The position numbers and the translations under genes were made by a program. Shown piece by piece: positions 54,709 through 64,000 of a DNA stretch of 64,000 bases (positions within the stretch are counted from its first letter, which is position 1; each line of letters opens with the position of its first letter). The stretch is from Candidatus Micrarchaeota archaeon. GTDB taxonomy: Archaea > Micrarchaeota > Micrarchaeia > Anstonellales > Bilamarchaeaceae. The DNA is taken from the NCBI GenBank assembly GCA_043821365.1, contig JBDRCX010000006.1, positions 256,001 to 320,000 on the forward strand. Direction: 5' to 3'. Under the pieces are notes generated by a model. It made no database searches. It worked only from the letters and a program-made list of their open reading frames with translations, and had not been told where the DNA came from.

Positions 54709-54806
54709 CGGGCCCGACGGGATTTGAACCCGTATCCCGAGGTATCTCCTACAATTAGGAGGGGCATTCGAAGCCTCGTCGGTTATCCAGGTTGCCAAAC
54801 GGGCCC
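54709..54806 (-). tRNA. tRNA-Arg(TCG) with a 24-nt canonical 37/38 intron (54744-54767)
   Basis: Acceptor GGGCCCG/CGGGCCC plus G73; D loop CCTGGATA (A20); anticodon stem CGAGG/CCTCG; T arm ACGGG-TTCAAAT-CCCGT. BHB with CTTC/GGAG helix and 3-nt bulges GAA and ATA. Confidence 0.92.
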
Positions 54807-55532
54807 TTTTTCTATCTTTATTTCTTTCCGTAGTATTGATAATCGTTCTGCATAAGTTGTATTTGGTGGGCAATGACCATATCTCATCCAAATGTCATAT
54901 CTACTAGATTTCACATGATTATTCATACCTATCATGTTCATCCATTTAATTGCTCTACCCCCAGTTATCCAAATTCTATATGCATTTGACCATTTTGAAT
55001 TTTGAGGGTATACAATATCGCTACAATGTCTAATCTCTAGACTATTAAGAATATCTTTTGTTTCATCAAAAAGAGATTTGGACGTAGTGGTCAAATTTAT
55101 CACTGGATAATAATGGCATGTTCTTTTGAATTCACGGTATTTTCCAGTACTTCGTTTGAACGAAAGTGATCCATCGGTATCAACTAAACCCCTTAAAAAA
55201 GCACATTTGATTTGCAAGCTTTGGGTCTTCATTATAAATTTGGGAATTGAAACAATGTAGCTTTTTCTACCATAAGGAAATCCTAGTGAATGCATTTTTT
55301 CTATTATTTTCTTCTCTCTAATAACGAATCCATATGTGCTTCGTTTAGGAAAAATTCTTCCATTGATTACAGTTCGAAAAACTTTACTAAATAGCGGAAT
55401 TACTATATTTCTATAGTAAATCTCTTCTTCTAATGAACCACTCACATCCAGCTCCCTATTATGGTTCTTATTTCTCAAATGGCCATCTCCAGCATGGATT
55501 CCACATATCTCTGCAAGTTCTATATCCCCCAT
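54783..55532 (-). mobile_element. Free-standing double-motif LAGLIDADG homing endonuclease; last 24 nt overlap tRNA-Arg
   Basis: LAEICGIHAGDG and AFLRGLVDTDGS motifs. C-terminal GPVWQPG* is encoded by tRNA positions 1-22 (stop TAA in the D loop). Confidence 0.9.
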
Positions 55533-55575
55533 ATCTGATACACAAATCCATAACTTATCTATTTTTCGGGGGACA

Positions 55576-55608
55576 CATCATTTCCTAGATGGTTTAGACC
55601 ACGGACCC
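55576..55608 (-). pseudogene. tRNA 5' fragment (acceptor 5' strand plus D arm), putative displaced tRNA-Arg start
   Basis: GGGTCCG-TG-GTCT-AAACCATCTAGGAAA-TGAT-G; GGGTCCG can pair with the tRNA-Arg 3' acceptor strand (one G-U); TATA-like TTAAATTA at 55643-55636. Confidence 0.55.
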
Positions 55609-55693
55609 TTGAGTTGATTGGCTGTGTAATGTTCTTAATTTAATCATCCTTGTGGTAGAGTGGTTAAAAATGTTTTTATATACTGATTGTATT

Positions 55694-56395
55694 ATGCGTT
55701 TTAGAGACATTACTGCCACTGGAAAACATAGGTCATGGCTACCTGAATGGGGCAAACCCTATTCCCCTGGTTTCAAACATGCTGAAGTTCGTCCACTTTT
55801 AGAGGAAATGGACAGAAAAGGAATGCTTGGTAGAATGTTCTTAGATTGTGGTAGTGGCAGCAAAAAATCTGATTTTTATCCTGTAAATGGTAAGCGTGTA
55901 ATTCGTGTGGATGTTGGTATGCCTTATGGGTATTCAAGAGATGGTAATGTTCTTGAACTTAGGGTAGATGTCGAAACACTAACATTGGCCACACTGGTTG
56001 ATCTTTACCGTAGTCTTCCTAAGGAATGCCACTTTGCCGGTTCAGCTATTAATATTGTGCCAGATACTCTCATAGTGGTTGATCTCCTTAACTATGTTAA
56101 TTTCAGAGATGTCATACCACGACTTATGGATATGCTTCGTTATGGTGGTAGGGCAGTTATCAGTAACTTTGCTGGCATGGGAATTACAGAATTACTTTCA
56201 CAGGATGGAGTGAAAAACAATTTACAATTTTTAGAATTCTTATCTGAGTGTAAATTCAGACTCGAACATCTTACTTTTCCGCCTTTATTTCCACCGTCGT
56301 GGGTTCCACGTTCTGAACCACCTGCTCCATATCCGTCAATAGCTACTACTCTGAGAGATAATGGGAGCATGATATTGGTTCTGGTGAAAGATTAG
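55694..56395 (+). CDS. Methyltransferase-like hypothetical protein
   Basis: FLDCGSG motif I; start at ATG 55694 follows TTTTTATA. Confidence 0.5.
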   Translation: MRFRDITATGKHRSWLPEWGKPYSPGFKHAEVRPLLEEMDRKGMLGRMFLDCGSGSKKSDFYPVNGKRVIRVDVGMPYGYSRDGNVLELRVDVETLTLATLVDLYRSLPKECHFAGSAINIVPDTLIVVDLLNYVNFRDVIPRLMDMLRYGGRAVISNFAGMGITELLSQDGVKNNLQFLEFLSECKFRLEHLTFPPLFPPSWVPRSEPPAPYPSIATTLRDNGSMILVLVKD

Positions 56396-57292
56396 CTATT
56401 TTGTTAAAACTTCGCAACCATCTTTTGTTACCAAAATTGTGTGCTCTGCTTGTGAAACCAGCCCTCTACTAACTTCTCTTAAAACAGGATAGCCTCGTAT
56501 GAATTGGTTTTGCAACAATTCTTTCAGCGCAGCACTCACAAGCAATTTTGATGGGAATTCCTTTCTCACCCATCGTTCAGCAAACGGAAGCATTCCGTAA
56601 TTTTTTATTACATAATCAACTATCTTTCTTGACTGCCTCATTCTTACATTTGCTGGGGAATAAAGAGAAAATATTTCTACCTGTTCCAAATCTTCAACAT
56701 ATCCACTCCCAGTTGTTGCAAAAGGTTCAACAGCAAAAATATCTCCTTCTTTGAGTTTGTAAATATCTTTTGTTCTTATGTTTGGTATCTCAACACCAGC
56801 ATGCAATTGGTTTGATTTTATCATATGTCCTGAAAGATTTGAGATTGGTTTGAAACCGTACTTGTTTATTGTTTCTTCTATCAAACCCCCAATTTCACCA
56901 ACTCCTACGTCTGGTTTAATTGCGTCTATTGCATTCTGAAGAGCTTCTTCTGATGCTTTAACAAGAGTTTCATTTTTTCCACTCATATCAATTGTGTAAG
57001 CAGTATCTGAAAGCGCACCATCGATTTCTATTCCAAGGTCTATCTTTACTAGGGCATCATCCTCCATCAAACGTTCTGAATCAAATTCTGGAGTGTAATG
57101 TGCTGCTATTTCATTAATTGAAATATTTACCGGAAATGCTGGTTTTCCTCCTTCATCCTTTATGCTTTGCTCTATCATATCAGCAATGTCCAATAATGAT
57201 TCCCCTACCATTATCAAACGTTTACTTTCTTCACGTATTTTTGCTGCTATTTTTCCCGCAGTTCTAAATTTTTCTAATTCATCATCAGACAT
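56396..57292 (-). CDS. map: Methionine aminopeptidase type II
   Basis: AFPVNISINEIAAHYTP, KIDLG, DTAYT, NLSGH, AVEPF, QAEHTI motifs. Confidence 0.96.
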   Translation of the reverse strand: MSDDELEKFRTAGKIAAKIREESKRLIMVGESLLDIADMIEQSIKDEGGKPAFPVNISINEIAAHYTPEFDSERLMEDDALVKIDLGIEIDGALSDTAYTIDMSGKNETLVKASEEALQNAIDAIKPDVGVGEIGGLIEETINKYGFKPISNLSGHMIKSNQLHAGVEIPNIRTKDIYKLKEGDIFAVEPFATTGSGYVEDLEQVEIFSLYSPANVRMRQSRKIVDYVIKNYGMLPFAERWVRKEFPSKLLVSAALKELLQNQFIRGYPVLREVSRGLVSQAEHTILVTKDGCEVLTK

Positions 57293-57392
57293 GAGTATCA
57301 CGTTTAATATGCTGTTTTCAGTTTAAAAAATGCGTCTATATTGATGAATTTATGTGACACATGTTTAAATATAAAAATCAAGCGTTTATCTC

Positions 57393-57662
57393 ATGGAACT
57401 TTGTTTTCGTCAACGTGGTTCTACAGAGCGAAGTACGAAACGCCCAGTTCCAATCATAAAAGCAATAAAAAGGATTCCAGTTCCGGATTTTGATCCAAAT
57501 TGGGTACCTCCTGGAGCACTTGAAAAACTTAGAAAAGAACAGCAGCCTCCAAAAGAGGATCGTCCGCGATTGGAATTACCACTTTATGATGAACCACCAC
57601 CAGGATGGCAACCAAGAAATGAAACACCAAAAGAAGAGCGTGGTGTTGTTATTCAAATCTAA
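57393..57662 (+). CDS. Small Pro-rich hypothetical protein
   Basis: 89-aa ORF after TTTAAATATA that fills the intergenic gap. Confidence 0.4.
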   Translation: MELCFRQRGSTERSTKRPVPIIKAIKRIPVPDFDPNWVPPGALEKLRKEQQPPKEDRPRLELPLYDEPPPGWQPRNETPKEERGVVIQI

Positions 57663-57663
57663 T

Positions 57664-58569
57664 CTATCTCATTACAAGTCGTCTTTTTACTTCATACAAT
57701 TTTCCTAAGTCAGGAACATCAAATCTTGGCGGTCTAAATGGTTTGACTGACCCTATCTCTCTAATCCATGGTACTTTGTCAGGAGGATCAATTATCCTGA
57801 TCTCTCGTGGTCCTGTTGTTACAAATCTTCCCTCTTCATCTCTTTGTACATTTGGTATACTTATTTTCCCTCGCACAAGGCGTCGGTCTATTACTTTTCT
57901 TGCCTTTCTCCATTCATGCGATTCAAGAATACTATAATCAAGCAATAAAAGTACATCTACAGTTGCACATCTCATTACTGTTCTCAAAAATCTTCCTGCT
58001 GCTTCTAATGTGGCACCAGTCATCACATCATTTTCCAAAAGCAAAATTCGTTTACCTTCAAGCGATTCTGTTATGTGTTCAATTGGTGCCACCTTTCTCA
58101 ATGTATCAGAGTTCATTCTTTTTGTTAGTATATTTGTAACATCCCATCCGACCAAATCAAAAATATAACTAAGCCAAAGTCCTTTGACTGCATTTCCAAC
58201 AGCACAATCATATCTTTCACGCAATTCATGCGCAGCTGTCCATGTTGCTTCAATATTACCTACTTGCGATGCATATGGATATTGAAATGTTCCAATCCTA
58301 TTGTGTGCATCTCTAAGAATTCCTATTTCTTCATCTGTGATAGCTCGTCTATCGATTGCAGTTGTAACTATCTCAACTAACTTTGTTTGTACTCCTTCGA
58401 GATATTCTCTAAATTTTCTCTCGAATTGTACCATCAAATCTGTTAATCCACGTTGTGCCAGTCCTTCCTGAGTGTAATATGCTTCTCGTGGCATCTCTGA
58501 TGGTGTTCCTTTTGTGCCCATATTTATATACGTATTACCATATCTTTTTATTGCTATCCTTATCCTCAT
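57664..58569 (-). CDS. Hypothetical protein with a phosphoribosyltransferase-like PRPP loop
   Basis: ILLLENDVMTGATLEAA resembles VLLVDDV.TTG.TL. Confidence 0.5.
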   Translation of the reverse strand: MRIRIAIKRYGNTYINMGTKGTPSEMPREAYYTQEGLAQRGLTDLMVQFERKFREYLEGVQTKLVEIVTTAIDRRAITDEEIGILRDAHNRIGTFQYPYASQVGNIEATWTAAHELRERYDCAVGNAVKGLWLSYIFDLVGWDVTNILTKRMNSDTLRKVAPIEHITESLEGKRILLLENDVMTGATLEAAGRFLRTVMRCATVDVLLLLDYSILESHEWRKARKVIDRRLVRGKISIPNVQRDEEGRFVTTGPREIRIIDPPDKVPWIREIGSVKPFRPPRFDVPDLGKLYEVKRRLVMR

Positions 58570-58592
58570 TAATACTTCTTCACATAATTAGT

Positions 58593-61148
58593 ATGATGCC
58601 AAGCGTAGCAGAATTAATCCGAGAAAGGTTTGGCGAGCTTACCCCCATTCAAAAAATTGCCATGCCCAATGTTCTTGCTGGAAAAAATGTCCTTATTTTA
58701 GCTCCAACTGGTTCTGGGAAAACTGAAAGTGCACTTTTGCCCATCCTAGAAAAGATCAAACTCAACAAAGACAAGACACCTGGTATTAGGGCACTGTACA
58801 TAACTCCACTCCGTGCACTTTCACGTGATCTTAAACAAAGGTTCAACTGGTGGTGTGACAGATTAGATATTTCACATGACATCAGAACTGGCGATACAAC
58901 AATGGCAGAAAGGGCAAAACATAGACGCAATCCCCCCCAAATCCTTCTTACAACTGTGGAATCATTACAGGCACTTTTGCTCGGACGAATAATGCGCAGA
59001 CATCTTTCAACAATTGAATTTGTTATTGTTGATGAGATTCATGATATTTTAGACAATAAACGAGGTGCACAACTTTCGCTTGGTCTTGAACGTCTTAACG
59101 AAATTGCCAAATTCCAAAGACTTGGTATAAGTGCAACAGTTGCAAATGAGTCAGAAGCAGGAAAACTTCTTTTTGGTGATCGTGAATTTCAACTTTGTGA
59201 AAGTGGTAAAAATCGGAAAATGGATTTTAGTGTAGAATCACTTTCAAATGAAAAACGTTTAGAAAGAATAAAAAAATTATCAGAACAAAACCGGTCATTG
59301 GTTTTTGTAAATACGCGAAGTACAGCAGAAGAGATCGGTGCGTCATTGAAAAAAATGAAAGCATCAATAGGGGTTCATCATGGTTCCCTTGCAAAAGAAG
59401 TTAGATTAACTACAGAAGATGATTTCAAAAGCAGCAAGATCAATTCTATCCTATGCACATCTTCTCTTGAATTAGGAATTGATGTTGGGGATGTTTCATT
59501 AGTTTTGCAATATGGTTCTCCTCACCAAGTTTTTCGTTTAATACAAAGAGTTGGAAGATCTGGCCACAGTCTTGAGAAAACACCCAAAGGAATTATTTTC
59601 AGTTCAGATTTTGATGATAATCTTGAAAGTGAAGTAATAACAGTACTTGCAAAAAACGGGTGGATGGAAGATAAAAAAGTCGAGAGGGGTGCATTAGATG
59701 TCATTGCACACCAGATTATTGGAGTGTGTATTGATTTCGGAAGAATAGAACTTTCAAAAATACACCAAATACTTTCACGATCATATGCATATGGTATTGA
59801 TTTCAATAAACTAAGGATGGTTGCGCTTCAGCTTTTTTCTGAAGGACTAATATATTATGATGAAACTCCTAAGGATGTTCTAGTCAAAACAACCAGAAGA
59901 GCAATAATCTACTATTCCACATTTATCAGTACTATACCAAAAACTAAAAAATTTCTTCTTCGTGATATATCTGCCAACCGATTTATTTCAAGTTTAGATG
60001 AAGAATTTGTTGTTAATCTAGAGGCAGGATCAAGTTTTCTTTCCCATGGTCTTCCATGGCACGTGATAGATATTACAGAAAAAGAAGTGCTTGCAGAACC
60101 AACATCTGGTTTGGACATAATGATACCTTCTTGGACTGGGGAAGATATCCCTGTTTCTTTTGATGTTGCACAAGAAGTTGGAAAGATGCGTTCAGTTAAA
60201 GCGATTTCTCCCCTTCCTGATCATAAGATCATCGTCATAGAGCTAGTTGAAGACTTGATTGTTGTTCATGCTTGTTTTGGTACAAAAGTAAATGAAGCGA
60301 TTGCACGTGTGTTCTCAAAACAAATTTCCAGTTTAATTGGGGAAAGTGTGATCGCAGTTTCTGATCCATATAGAATTATGATAAAATTGCCATTTCCACT
60401 AAAAGAAGAAAATATACAAAGTGCTTTTGAAAATGTCAGGAATGTCAAGAACCAATTGTCTGATGCACTCGAACATTCTTCAATGTTAAAATTCAAATTC
60501 CTTCATGTTGCGAGGATGTTTGGTTTGCTTTCAGTTGAAGGAACCATGAATTCAAGATATATTCAGATGCTCCGACACTCAGTTGTTTATGAAGAAACAA
60601 TACGTTCTATTTTTTTCAGATATTTTGATGTTGAAAAAACTGAAGAAATTTTGAAAGATACTAGAAATGGAAAAATAAAATTAATTTACGATGTTAGAAA
60701 AAAACCAAGTTTCTTTGCACAAATAGGTCTTGAAAGAATGTCCGGGGCAGATTCTGTTGGTGCATTTGAACCTCGTGAAAGAATAGTTTCTGCATTTAAG
60801 GAGAATGTTCTCTCGAAAACAGTACGCTTAATCTGTCTTAATTGCAAAGCAACAAGATTTATGCATCTTGCTGGTGCACCTGAAAAAATTGTTTGCCATA
60901 AATGCAATCAACCTTCGTTGGCTATTGTAAATAAAGAGGGTGAGCCAAAACATGATGCGGAATTTTCTGCAGGCTTAATCCGTGCTTACGGAAAAAAAGC
61001 ACTTATTGCTCTTTCTACTTATGGTATTGGTCCACAAACAGCTGATCGTGTTCTAAGACGATTGCATAAAACAGAAGAAGCGTTTTATCTTGATCTGATT
61101 GAAGCACAAAAGAATTTTATTAAAAATAAAAAATATTGGAAATTGTAA
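58593..61148 (+). CDS. lhr: Lhr-like SF2 ATP-dependent helicase
   Basis: APTGSGKT, YITPLRAL, DEIH, HHGSL, SSLELGIDVG, QRVGRSGH; C-terminal CxxC...CxxC and HhH; start at about 58593. Confidence 0.92.
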   Translation: MMPSVAELIRERFGELTPIQKIAMPNVLAGKNVLILAPTGSGKTESALLPILEKIKLNKDKTPGIRALYITPLRALSRDLKQRFNWWCDRLDISHDIRTGDTTMAERAKHRRNPPQILLTTVESLQALLLGRIMRRHLSTIEFVIVDEIHDILDNKRGAQLSLGLERLNEIAKFQRLGISATVANESEAGKLLFGDREFQLCESGKNRKMDFSVESLSNEKRLERIKKLSEQNRSLVFVNTRSTAEEIGASLKKMKASIGVHHGSLAKEVRLTTEDDFKSSKINSILCTSSLELGIDVGDVSLVLQYGSPHQVFRLIQRVGRSGHSLEKTPKGIIFSSDFDDNLESEVITVLAKNGWMEDKKVERGALDVIAHQIIGVCIDFGRIELSKIHQILSRSYAYGIDFNKLRMVALQLFSEGLIYYDETPKDVLVKTTRRAIIYYSTFISTIPKTKKFLLRDISANRFISSLDEEFVVNLEAGSSFLSHGLPWHVIDITEKEVLAEPTSGLDIMIPSWTGEDIPVSFDVAQEVGKMRSVKAISPLPDHKIIVIELVEDLIVVHACFGTKVNEAIARVFSKQISSLIGESVIAVSDPYRIMIKLPFPLKEENIQSAFENVRNVKNQLSDALEHSSMLKFKFLHVARMFGLLSVEGTMNSRYIQMLRHSVVYEETIRSIFFRYFDVEKTEEILKDTRNGKIKLIYDVRKKPSFFAQIGLERMSGADSVGAFEPRERIVSAFKENVLSKTVRLICLNCKATRFMHLAGAPEKIVCHKCNQPSLAIVNKEGEPKHDAEFSAGLIRAYGKKALIALSTYGIGPQTADRVLRRLHKTEEAFYLDLIEAQKNFIKNKKYWKL

Positions 61149-61149
61149 T

Positions 61150-61572
61150 CTATTCTATTCTTGCTCGCATCAGAGGTTCTTTGGAATATAATAATGCTAA
61201 AACCAACACTGTTCCAATTATGGTTTCTATCCACATTCCTAATCCAGCCAACACCCCGATTGATGCAGTTACCCAAATTGCAGCAGCAGTTGTTATCCCA
61301 GATGGTTTTGCCATGCCCTCTTTCCAAATAACAGCAAGTCCAAGAAAACCAACACCAGCAACTATCTGGGCTATCACCCTTGTTGGGTCATAACTGTTGC
61401 TATATGGTAGAAACATATCTGCAACTGAAACTATTGTGAATACAGCAGAACCTAGTGAGATCAATGCAAATGTTCTCACTCCTGCTGGTTTGTGCTTTCT
61501 TGATAAACCTATTAACAGTCCTATGGCCACAGCAGCTACAAGTCTTATTACTGCTTCCAATTCACTTACCAT
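61150..61572 (-). CDS. mgtC: MgtC/SapB family membrane protein
   Basis: AGVRTF, DPTRVIAQIVAGVGFLG, GITTAAAIW motifs. Confidence 0.92.
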   Translation of the reverse strand: MVSELEAVIRLVAAVAIGLLIGLSRKHKPAGVRTFALISLGSAVFTIVSVADMFLPYSNSYDPTRVIAQIVAGVGFLGLAVIWKEGMAKPSGITTAAAIWVTASIGVLAGLGMWIETIIGTVLVLALLYSKEPLMRARIE

Positions 61573-61673
61573 ACTCGATATTCTGTGACAGTGCTTTATA
61601 AACTTTCATCGAACCACGTTAGCCATGCCAAGAACGTCGAAACGTTCTTGAGTATCGTAACCGGAGGTTCTCA

Positions 61674-62252
61674 ATGCACAGACAAGTTGGTTTGGTACAA
61701 TCAGGTGGAAACAGCGGAAATAAATTCCGTCAATTCACTTTACGTGCTGAAGGCATCCAAGTTCTTCCTCAAAATACAGTAGAAAATATGGTGCATACAC
61801 TTCATCGTCGTTCCGCTCATTCAATTCTGTCAAGATATTCTGCTGCAAAAAAAACATTACAAGAACAATTTGGTGGTGTTGTTGAACTGGTGCAGGTTCA
61901 TAATGGTGCAATAAGAATAGCTGCTAGACTTGAATTCCTTACTGACCATTTACGGCTTGATGAAAAATTACATTCACTTGTTGTTGGTATGGGTTTTGAT
62001 TTGGTACTTCATCATAGGGTTAGACCAACAGAAGAGCATGTATATATCATAAGTGAAAGTAGGTACAAATCAACCGCTGACTTTTCAGCAGTTGCACATA
62101 TTACTGAAAATCTTCTTCGTCTTGCAAAGATGTTGGAACAATATACTGTTGAATTGCCAGATAATGTAGTGAGACTTCCTATTGGTGAAACAACTCCAAC
62201 TTCTGTTCGAAGTTGCACATTCGAGAACCGGAGGGTGGCACTAGGCACATGA
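61674..62252 (+). CDS. Hypothetical protein
   Basis: 192-aa ORF with a GGAGG RBS at 61663-61667. Confidence 0.5.
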   Translation: MHRQVGLVQSGGNSGNKFRQFTLRAEGIQVLPQNTVENMVHTLHRRSAHSILSRYSAAKKTLQEQFGGVVELVQVHNGAIRIAARLEFLTDHLRLDEKLHSLVVGMGFDLVLHHRVRPTEEHVYIISESRYKSTADFSAVAHITENLLRLAKMLEQYTVELPDNVVRLPIGETTPTSVRSCTFENRRVALGT

Positions 62253-62280
62253 TTATTAATTTTATCTAAGTGCACATATA

Positions 62281-62832
62281 ATGCGTTTGCCAAGTTTTAT
62301 TATCTATGCTCTATTTGCACTTATATTTGTTCTAATGCTCTTTATGGCATTTAATATTTTTGATCATACTTTATTACTTATTCTTATCACAATCGATATC
62401 CTATTATTTTTCTGTCTTCTCTATCTGTTCATCACTCAAAGATTATCAAAAGAAATAGATTTTACAAAATATCCAATTGAGGTTCCAGTGCTTGGCATGC
62501 ATGAAAGAGCAAAAATTCTTCCAGATTTTATCCTACAAGAGGATGTTAGTGGAGTTGCTCCGAAAATGGTTTTCTTTCAAGATCATTTTGAGTTCAATCC
62601 AAGTGCCATTGGTATCAGACCAAGAAATAAGCGTTATTCTGAAGTTGAATTGGTAGATGTTACTCATTTTTTGTTTATGGATACAGTTAAATTTACCTTC
62701 AAAGGCAATCTCGCTCTTTCTATTCAACTATTACACAAGAAAAATCTTATCCTGCTTCTTAAATTTCTTAACAAAAAAGGATGCATATTTTCTCCAAAGA
62801 CAAAAAAACTGCTAAAACAAAATCCTTCCTAA
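62281..62832 (+). CDS. Hypothetical membrane protein (two N-terminal TMs)
   Basis: Hydrophobic N-terminus and soluble C-terminal domain. Confidence 0.55.
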   Translation: MRLPSFIIYALFALIFVLMLFMAFNIFDHTLLLILITIDILLFFCLLYLFITQRLSKEIDFTKYPIEVPVLGMHERAKILPDFILQEDVSGVAPKMVFFQDHFEFNPSAIGIRPRNKRYSEVELVDVTHFLFMDTVKFTFKGNLALSIQLLHKKNLILLLKFLNKKGCIFSPKTKKLLKQNPS

Positions 62833-62861
62833 TTTTAATTTCTTACTCTCTTTATCCTATC

Positions 62862-62924
62862 ATGTTCAAACAAACAATTGTTGTTCGTGCTGATCTAAAG
62901 ATGAACCGCGGAAATGACGTCTAA
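62862..62924 (+). pseudogene. pth2: pth2 5' stub: 17 Pth2-like codons, then 3 unrelated codons and a stop
   Basis: Translates MFKQTIVVRADLKMNRG-NDV*; 12 of 17 residues identical to the downstream Pth2 N-terminus. Confidence 0.85.
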
Positions 62925-63909
62925 TCCTGTTTATAAACGACCAAAAATCTATTTTTTTATGAAACGATATTGGGATAAGAAATATTTGAAAAAACAATTA
63001 CGTGCTGGCAAGACTTATCTAACCATTGCTAAAGAAAATAATATCTCTAGTACTACTGTTCAAAGAGCATTAAATACATATGAGCTAACGAAACCAAGGT
63101 ACGATTGGAATCAGAAAGAACTCGCTCTTCTAAAACGATACTACTGCCGCACATCCTATCCAAATCTGATTCTACCTCATAGGACTTTAAGTTCTATCTA
63201 CCATAAAGCTACTCGTCTTGGTCTGAAAAGTTCTAATCATTTTAGGAAATATAAAATTAACACAAATTTTTTCAAAAAATGGACAAAATCGATGGCATAT
63301 CTGCTTGGATGGATGTTTAGTGATGGGAATATGGCGGATGATTGCCGTTCATTCAGATTAAAATTGGCGATTAAAGATCAAGGAATTTTATATGTCCTTA
63401 AGCGTGCCATGAACGCAAATGTTCCGATACGTGTTCATTCACAATTAGTTCCCTCTAAAAAATATTATGCTCAGTATGCTAATCTAAGAGTTACTAATAT
63501 CGAAATGTATAATGATCTCGTTCGCCTTGGGTGCACTCAAAACAAAGTGCACAAATTTATTCCACCCAACATTCCGCCAGTTTTTGTTAGTCATTTCATC
63601 CGTGGATATTTCGACGGAGATGGGTCTATCTATTTTAATAAACCTAATACTATCAGAATTAGATTCGTTGGTTCCAATCGTACTTTCATTCTTTGGCTGG
63701 CTACTTATTTTAATAAAAAATTGTGCTGTCCATTTAACTTCAAAAAAACTCCAATTGCAAAAAAATTATGGCAATGCGAGTATTATGGCGATAATGCACG
63801 TAATCTATGCAAGTGGATGTACCGTGGTTGTGAGAATCTTTATCTTAAACGAAAACGAAAACGCTTTATTGACCATCTGAAAAAGAGAATGTTATGTTCA
63901 AGCAGATAA
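62914..63909 (+). mobile_element. Free-standing double-motif LAGLIDADG homing endonuclease with N-terminal HTH-like region
   Basis: AYLLGWMFSDGN and HFIRGYFDGDGS motifs. The ATG overlaps the end of the stub; the stop overlaps the first 16 nt of intact pth2. Confidence 0.92.
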
Positions 63910-64000
63910 TCGTTATGCGGAAAGATCTCAAAATGTCTGTGGGTAAGCTTTTAGCACAATCTTCTCATGCGTCACTTTCAGCTTACAAAAAAGTCTCAAA
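63894..64000 (+). CDS. pth2: Peptidyl-tRNA hydrolase Pth2, N-terminal part (runs off the window edge)
   Basis: Hand translation [35 protein letters not shown] matches the Pth2 pattern KQ.IV.R.DLKM..GK..AQ..HA. Confidence 0.92.

Follow-up and report, generated by a model that had tools for sequence, protein, structure and literature searches.

Two free-standing LAGLIDADG endonuclease genes are found in the window, by which we mean the whole 64,000-nucleotide stretch of a Candidatus Micrarchaeota genome analyzed here (G000:C6:256001-320000, where G000 denotes the genome that holds both loci). One of them, endonuclease A, precedes a tRNA-Arg gene; the other, endonuclease B, precedes pth2. At each locus a truncated 5' piece of the target gene (the stub) is followed by the endonuclease open reading frame (ORF) and then by a complete copy of the gene (the restart). 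Both are probably homing cassettes seated in the 5' part of their targets, spreading by intronless homing in which the 5' end of the gene is replaced; comparisons among genomes support such gene-start replacement strongly at pth2 and weakly at tRNA-Arg. LAGLIDADG homing endonucleases introduce site-specific double-strand breaks at targets of 18-24 bp. To our knowledge, homing endonucleases residing in essential genes have been thought viable only within self-splicing introns or inteins, the remainder being intergenic or, in organelles, associated with 3'-end replacement. The pth2-linked family, which extends across several DPANN lineages, would meet this difficulty in the DNA itself, by providing its target with a new 5' end.

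The G000 genome (1.2 Mb, 36% G+C, 87% complete) has only about 20 detectable tRNAs, many with large or odd inserts. The window sequence is present in groundwater and biofilm metagenomes, and no RNA data set appears among the public runs that contain it. Both loci are matched without differences by contigs of three metagenome runs, which come from two studies and bridge the junctions between stub and cassette. Contigs joining a stub to the gene body, i.e., an endonuclease-less allele, were absent from these metagenome contigs, which cannot prove that such an allele does not exist.

Anatomy of the pth2 locus

The pth2 stub (MFKQTIVVRADLKM) comprises 14 codons, and its frame ends in a stop at 62924. 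It matches the pth2 start of the endonuclease-free relative G015 at 40 of 42 nt vs. 30 of 42 for the restart of its own locus; the 40 nt upstream are identical in G015, and the best match elsewhere in the genome than the stub and restart is 27/42. Residue 10 of the stub is A, as in 21 of the 25 endonuclease-free alleles of the genus, and the restart carries the variant codons K10, S15, V16, and L20. Judged by these matches, the stub is a relic of an endonuclease-free allele. Immediately behind it comes the CCGCGGAAAT motif, then 13 nt, a TATA-like box, and the likely start codon of endonuclease B, whose last 16 nt overlap the start of pth2 at 63894. The features of the locus, all on the forward strand, are as follows.

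62830..62841 (+): native pth2 TATA-like box, kept 5' of the stub; upstream sequence identical to that of endonuclease-free G015
62862..62903 (+): pth2 stub, first 14 codons of an allele of the endonuclease-free type; 40/42 nt to G015 and 38/42 to G024
62906..62915 (+): left end of the cassette, CCGCGGAAAT motif; common to G016, G017, G048, L111, and 15 of 27 other endonuclease loci of the genus
62929..62938 (+): the cassette's own TATA-like box (putative promoter), about 21 nt 5' of the likely start codon; the motif-to-box spacing is conserved across loci
62959..63909 (+): endonuclease B, 316 aa; two N-terminal helix-turn-helix (HTH)-like units and a double LAGLIDADG core; Pfam LAGLIDADG_3
63894..64000 (+): complete pth2 restart, 116 aa, continuing 244 nt beyond the end of the window; Pfam PTH2, E 4e-42

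The first-pass annotation, made from the letters of the window, had reported both LAGLIDADG ORFs, their overlaps of 16 and 24 nt with complete downstream genes, and both upstream stubs; all are present in the sequence, though two coordinates had to be amended. The pth2 stub starts at 62862. The longest ORF of endonuclease B (331 aa, 62914..63909, +) contains an ATG at 62959; related endonucleases begin at the corresponding place in the alignment, and this is the likely start.

Linkage to pth2, stubs, and allele history

At all 15 loci examined, a member of the endonuclease B family stands immediately before pth2, in unrelated neighborhoods across the DPANN archaea. Ten diverse members that were inspected all overlap the pth2 start, and in the nine of them with locus coordinates this overlap measures 8-58 nt. 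The family has roughly 250 members, and public data contain about 65 full-length relatives, from sources named, among others, Candidatus Micrarchaeota archaeon and Nanoarchaeota archaeon. Their target is fixed and their presence is patchy, even among close relatives: 4 of 40 genomes of the genus and 6 of 176 of the order carry the gene, one of the six as a 46-aa remnant.

Stubs of pth2, each with an upstream TATA-like box, recur in G000, G048, G100, L107, L112, and L113, with junctions after 14-21 codons. The same pattern scan recovered a duplicated gene end with its displaced fragment, here at the 5' rather than the 3' end of the gene, at 6 of 15 endonuclease B loci vs. none of 24 endonuclease-free loci (hypergeometric p = 0.0015, treating the related genomes as independent). 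The comparison with endonuclease-free loci that had been suggested for this purpose comes out in favor of the idea at pth2, where stubs recur in several DPANN lineages. Stubs are apparently lost with time, by decay or deletion: G017, the sister of G048, resembles G048 minus the TATA-like box and stub. G100 has lost most of the endonuclease itself, and the notion that the overlap makes these elements hard to delete is unsupported in view of these two cases.

The allele history of pth2 was followed in 29 alleles of the genus (4 endonuclease-linked and 25 endonuclease-free). The endonuclease-free alleles begin M[YF]KQTIV[VI]RADLxMG[KR]GK and the four linked ones read ..RKDLxMS[VCS]GK; only codons 10, 15, 16, and 20 separate the two groups. 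Carrier alleles thus differ from empty ones at the presumed site, with co-conversion of the flank. Stubs that reach codons 15-21 differ there from their own restart, so the probable target and the immunity changes would be located in this segment. In a maximum-likelihood tree of codons 23-116 the linked alleles occupy three separate positions, and their grouping in a single clade is rejected (approximately unbiased (AU) test, p 1e-5). Over codons 1-22 the linked alleles are closer to one another than to their neighbor in the body tree; the body shows the reverse. Since the linked gene bodies are not monophyletic, the element and the variant 5' end appear to have been transferred together, and we picture them as traveling as a unit. 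The initial proposal for pth2, namely an element inside the 5' coding region (we find the junctions at codons 14-21) that imports a variant 5' end, with the native promoter and start staying behind as a stub, was in this respect largely right.

The two enzymes

Each enzyme has two LAGLIDADG motifs, both with a catalytic acidic residue. In endonuclease A the motifs are visible in the translation as GIHAGDGH and GLVDTDGS; in endonuclease B the catalytic residues D122 and D221 are invariant in 28 homologues. The AlphaFold2 model of endonuclease B (confidence, pLDDT, 92) predicts a double alpha-beta-beta-alpha-beta-beta-alpha LAGLIDADG core. Among the best 50 of 78 Foldseek matches to the PDB at E <= 0.001, the top ones are LAGLIDADG endonucleases, maturases, and intein endonuclease domains; I-Tsp061I ranks first, accompanied by intein endonuclease domains, I-AniI, and I-SceI.

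Endonuclease B also gives an HTH_23 match and a weak match of WhiA type (E 0.038) in Pfam. Taken with its strict, operon-like linkage to pth2, this could suggest a domesticated WhiA-like LAGLIDADG-HTH regulator co-transcribed with pth2, the stubs being an unrelated duplication or an assembly error. We find this very hard to credit: the catalytic Asp residues are invariant, the distribution is patchy with one degraded copy, the pth2 alleles are mosaic, no upstream stub occurs in the 24 endonuclease-free controls, and the junctions are confirmed in three metagenome runs.

A promoter-like module in the cassette

The combination of CCGCGGAAAT and a TATA-like box also stands 5' of the endonuclease in G016, G017, G048, and L111. 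It precedes 15 of 27 other free-standing LAGLIDADG genes of the genus (about 0.05 expected), usually some 52 nt before the start codon. A promoter-like module (GCGGAAAT and TATA-like box) thus seems to be part of the cassettes themselves, which would make the host promoter dispensable; read-through from the retained native pth2 promoter is possible as well. With such a conserved module in the cassette, the earlier assumption that the elements depend on the host promoter is unsupported. The first-pass annotation had furthermore called the two endonucleases unrelated, which is too strong in view of the shared module and their common LAGLIDADG type; they belong to different LAGLIDADG subfamilies. 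An internal TATA box for pth2 within the 3' coding end of the endonuclease could not be distinguished from the A/T-rich background.

In its general form (window 62906-62938 and genus loci L044-L068) the module reads TTTCY-GCGGAAAT-GA..G, with the TATA-like box about 15 nt later, and is partly palindromic (TTTCCGCGGAAA). Further copies in G000 lie at C6:186948(+), C6:707611(-), and C6:37995(-). In this genome the module also stands before an 86-aa ORF and before another gene, each of which follows a GGTACCTTTTT..AAAAAGGTAC hairpin. As a general promoter element GCGGAAAT was rejected for want of genome-wide enrichment (30 found vs. 26 expected), and as a tRNA promoter element because it was not found upstream of endonuclease-free tRNAs.

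Introns and inteins

The stub could alternatively be a first exon, with the endonuclease inside a bulge-helix-bulge or group I intron that is spliced from pre-mRNA or pre-tRNA. tRNA introns are indeed numerous in this lineage, and a related endonuclease truly sits inside a tRNA intron in another family (locus L120, described below). The sequence of our two loci speaks differently. Rfam searches of both at E <= 5 returned tRNA and chance-level matches (E 0.56-1.4) only, with no group I intron family. The ends of the inserts form helices of 6 bp (pth2) and 5 bp (tRNA-Arg), no better than chance (p 0.8-0.99), compared with the perfect 10 bp of the positive control L120; this is a simple explicit helix test that falls short of a full search for the bulge-helix-bulge motif. 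The stubs contain stop codons and show decay. Nor is an upstream exon needed, as a bulge-helix-bulge intron would require: the downstream pth2 and tRNA-Arg genes are complete, and some loci have no stub at all. These stubless loci keep a conserved, complete pth2 restart, so splicing is not required. For these reasons we regard an intron at either locus as highly improbable.

An intein is equally at odds with the arrangement at pth2, where endonuclease B lies outside the pth2 reading frame, with its own ATG and stop codon and no match to intron models, where pth2 has its own ATG, and where Pfam gave no Hint-domain match. The absence of intron and intein signatures claimed at the outset is thus borne out by Rfam, the helix test, the reading frame, and Pfam alike.

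The tRNA-Arg locus

The second locus is read on the reverse strand and has the same order of parts.

55636..55643 (-): TATA-like box 5' of the tRNA stub, 27 nt before stub base 1; putative promoter
55584..55608 (-): tRNA-Arg 5' stub, about nt 1-24, degenerate past nt 17; 13/15 to the type-1 tRNA-Arg of G024 and G015
55555..55586 (-): promoter-like module of cassette A, AGGAAATGA and an A/T-rich box; a degenerate version of the motif seen across the genus
54783..55532 (-): endonuclease A, 249 aa, two LAGLIDADG motifs; Pfam LAGLIDADG_3, E 5.6e-10
54709..54806 (-): complete tRNA-Arg(TCG), type 2; Rfam 36.4 bits; 24-nt intron at 54744-54767

The tRNA gene overlaps the ORF of endonuclease A by 24 nt. 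ARAGORN reads the unspliced gene as Ser(CGA), but with the 24-nt intron (position 37/38) taken out the fold is that of tRNA-Arg(TCG), in agreement with the identity assigned earlier. The stub begins 76 nt before the start of endonuclease A and is the unique best genome-wide match (13/15) to the type-1 5' end of tRNA-Arg found in endonuclease-free relatives. This type 1 is present in the syntenic, endonuclease-free G024 and G015, and type 2 in G000 and G012, both of which have endonuclease A. Orthologues of endonuclease A precede tRNA-Arg in G012, G108, and G099, and none of these three loci has a clear stub. The sequence upstream of tRNA-Arg in G015 does not align with a 247-aa ORF of G000, which leaves the tRNA stub without a closely related empty site to compare it with. 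The tRNA-Arg stub is a single but non-random case, and we regard the original interpretation of this locus as plausible and, on balance, somewhat more probable than not.

Its extension to tRNA genes as a general strategy was an over-generalization. Nearly all free-standing LAGLIDADG genes of the genus abut or overlap the 5' end of a tRNA. A regular-expression scan for tRNA 5' ends at 27 such loci recovered the G000 tRNA-Arg stub only (1/27), and in local alignments of stub against restart at 27 endonuclease loci of the genus none exceeded the cross-locus null, including the tRNA-Arg stub against its own restart. Type 2 also occurs without endonuclease in relatives, and tRNA-Glu shows an insert instead (see below).

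Several endonuclease-free tRNA-Arg genes of the genus (among L074, L077, L079, L085, L088, and L097) have D-loop inserts of 30-50 nt, and the 3' end of each such insert repeats the preceding D-loop sequence. These inserts could be relics of earlier cassette insertions.

Proposed mechanism and the origin of the stubs

In the mechanism that we propose, the enzyme would cut an endonuclease-free allele, at pth2 within codons 14-21 (the conserved MGKGK region) and at tRNA-Arg in the D-arm. Repair of the right-hand end would then draw on an endonuclease-bearing donor by homology in the gene body, a step that copies the donor 5' end, the endonuclease ORF, and the promoter module of the cassette. The left-hand end would be joined at the left end of the cassette without homology, because the upstream flanks differ between lineages. 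The product would consist, in this order, of the native promoter, a dead stub, the cassette, and a complete gene whose start overlaps the stop codon of the endonuclease. The imported 5' end would resist cutting because its sequence departs from that of native alleles where the cut is presumed to fall, and neither RNA nor protein splicing would be needed. Stubs would afterwards decay or be deleted.

Several observations weigh against this mechanism. The genomes behind the stub counts are related and not statistically independent, and 9 of the 15 endonuclease B loci have no recognizable stub. The tRNA case amounts to one stub of 15-24 nt. Type-2 tRNA-Arg is present without an endonuclease in six relatives, and therefore recoding for immunity is not established at that gene. 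Finally, the G000 pth2 stub itself could be what a resident enzyme left of endonuclease-free DNA entering the cell. A 565-bp patch (62340-62904) ends exactly at the stub and is 88-93% identical to G015, vs. about 78% in the flanks; it contains a membrane-like 183-aa ORF that is present only in G000 and G015 among the 40 genomes of the genus. The patch thus looks like a recent lateral acquisition that stops at the stub, which may therefore be a captured incoming piece. The slightly longer interval 62281-62904, holding the 183-aa ORF, the pth2 promoter, and the stub, is likewise 88-93% identical to G015.

These data bear on another explanation, in which the enzymes are ordinary intergenic free-standing endonucleases (like T4 seg and mob) upstream of their target and the stubs are incidental scars. 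In G000 a G015-like fragment would have come in, been cut by the resident enzyme, and had its left piece captured, and 5'-end replacement would be no insertion strategy at all. The patch and its restricted ORF fit this well, as do the missing stubs in G016, G017, and seven other loci. Yet the cassette is always found at pth2 in some ten unrelated upstream contexts, so its spread cannot rest on upstream homology; stubs with native promoters recur in six species; and G017 looks like its sister G048 after deletion of a stub. A cut at the identical site is needed under both readings, as either direction of transfer implies. We consider incidental scars an unlikely explanation and retain the 5'-end replacement outlined above.

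If correct, the pth2 system offers a testable pair of enzyme and target, with a candidate site of about 24 bp in codons 14-21, and a natural marker of gene flow among uncultured ultra-small archaea. The enzymes also represent compact new LAGLIDADG scaffolds with an extra HTH-like domain.

Other endonucleases linked to tRNAs

The tRNA-Glu(TTC) gene has a 32-nt D-arm insert in all three endonuclease-linked alleles (G000 C6:463170-463307, equivalent to L003:2171-2308, and those of G024 and G015). The insert separates the D-loop from the 3' strand of the D-stem, contains the endonuclease stop codon, and is absent from the 16 endonuclease-free alleles that were parsed; six of these have another insert in the D-loop. 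The 32-nt insert probably needs splicing, and by analogy these elements resemble collaborative homing, not splicing-free replacement.

In L120 (G270:C21, from the same class and another family) a LAGLIDADG ORF lies inside a tRNA-Phe-like gene at about 1388-2240 on the reverse strand of the locus. The ORF shares 34-37% identity with endonuclease A and is preceded by the 5' exon; the T-arm follows 822 nt downstream, and the ends of the insert form the perfect 10-bp helix mentioned above. By its sequence this looks like an endonuclease-bearing bulge-helix-bulge tRNA intron, of which we found no description in the literature.

The endonucleases may be linked to the unusually large number of tRNA inserts that these genomes contain. 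Taken further, free-standing LAGLIDADG cassettes of DPANN archaea would be a major driver of change at the 5' ends of translation genes, with three modes of restoration that form a series up to intron-encoded genes: replacement of the 5' end (pth2, tRNA-Arg), a short spliced insert (tRNA-Glu), and a move into the intron (L120). We rate this broad picture as doubtful; if true, it would give a complete series from free-standing to intron-encoded endonucleases for archaeal bulge-helix-bulge introns and would account for the emergence of many non-canonical tRNA introns.

Further elements of this kind were noted in G000. A third free-standing LAGLIDADG gene (C6:321608-322243, -) lies 1.6 kb past the end of the window and 17 nt before a doubly interrupted tRNA-Phe-like tRNA; its position is conserved, with syntenic copies in G045, G051, G010, G009, G055, and others. 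At C6:672778-673617(+) a 279-aa LAGLIDADG ORF stops 4 nt before the start of rtcB, whose frame breaks after ..CMPDGH; an intein or mini-intron could be responsible. Several tRNA genes are directly preceded by a conserved, hairpin-containing leader of some 60 nt (..TTCGCGAAAAT..TTTTCACGA), in G000 at C3:26727, C6:327294, and C6:368881, upstream of tRNA-Leu and tRNA-Pro.

Comparison with known homing systems

A literature search, with limited reach into subscription journals, yielded no description of pth2-linked or tRNA-flanking free-standing archaeal LAGLIDADG genes, nor of an endonuclease family that keeps an essential gene working through a new 5' end. Intronless homing in T4-like phages (SegB, SegF, MobE; PMC2330249, PMC2988022, PMC2790892) shares with our loci an endonuclease gene that lies outside any intron or intein and beside its target, a patchy distribution among relatives, co-conversion of the flanks, and donor immunity by sequence differences; SegB even acts in a tRNA gene region. 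The phage enzymes, however, are of the GIY-YIG or HNH type and their genes are intergenic, whereas here LAGLIDADG genes on cellular archaeal chromosomes sit within the 5' end of the target, with the start overlapped, the 5' end duplicated, and a promoter-bearing stub left behind.

Archaeal LAGLIDADG enzymes are known from introns and inteins (I-Tsp061I, I-DmoI), and group I introns occur in rRNA genes of DPANN archaea (PMC6125680). The fold is the same, I-Tsp061I being the best structural match of endonuclease B, and so are the phyla. Those enzymes nevertheless belong to spliced elements of rRNA or protein genes, unlike the free-standing genes with their own promoter-like module described here.

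In collaborative homing (Zeng, Bonocora and Shub 2009 as cited in PMC6279837; F-CphI, PMC6083498), a free-standing endonuclease cooperates with an adjacent intron. As in the archaeal elements, the endonuclease adjoins a gene that no longer has an intact target site in the carrier genome, and the tRNA-Glu elements are probably better compared with this system. The two loci of the window differ in having no intron-like insert at the disrupted site, so that immunity would come from substitutions; any archaeal insert would moreover be of the bulge-helix-bulge and not the group I type.

In other cases from mitochondria the endonuclease enters near a gene terminus and supplies a replacement for the displaced end. 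Allomyces atp6 is reportedly one such insertion with a duplicated 3' gene end. In fungal mitochondria, partial C-terminal copies of cob and atp6 are flanked by LAGLIDADG or GIY-YIG ORFs (PMC6279837), and there as here the displaced end is kept as a pseudogene fragment. The archaeal arrangement is the mirror image: the 5' end is replaced, so that a start codon and transcription must be restored, and the target may even be a tRNA gene. By these analogies the closest systems are the intronless homing of phages (PMC2330249, PMC2988022) and the 3'-end duplications of mitochondria (PMC6279837), of which the cassettes at pth2 and tRNA-Arg would be a mirrored archaeal variant.

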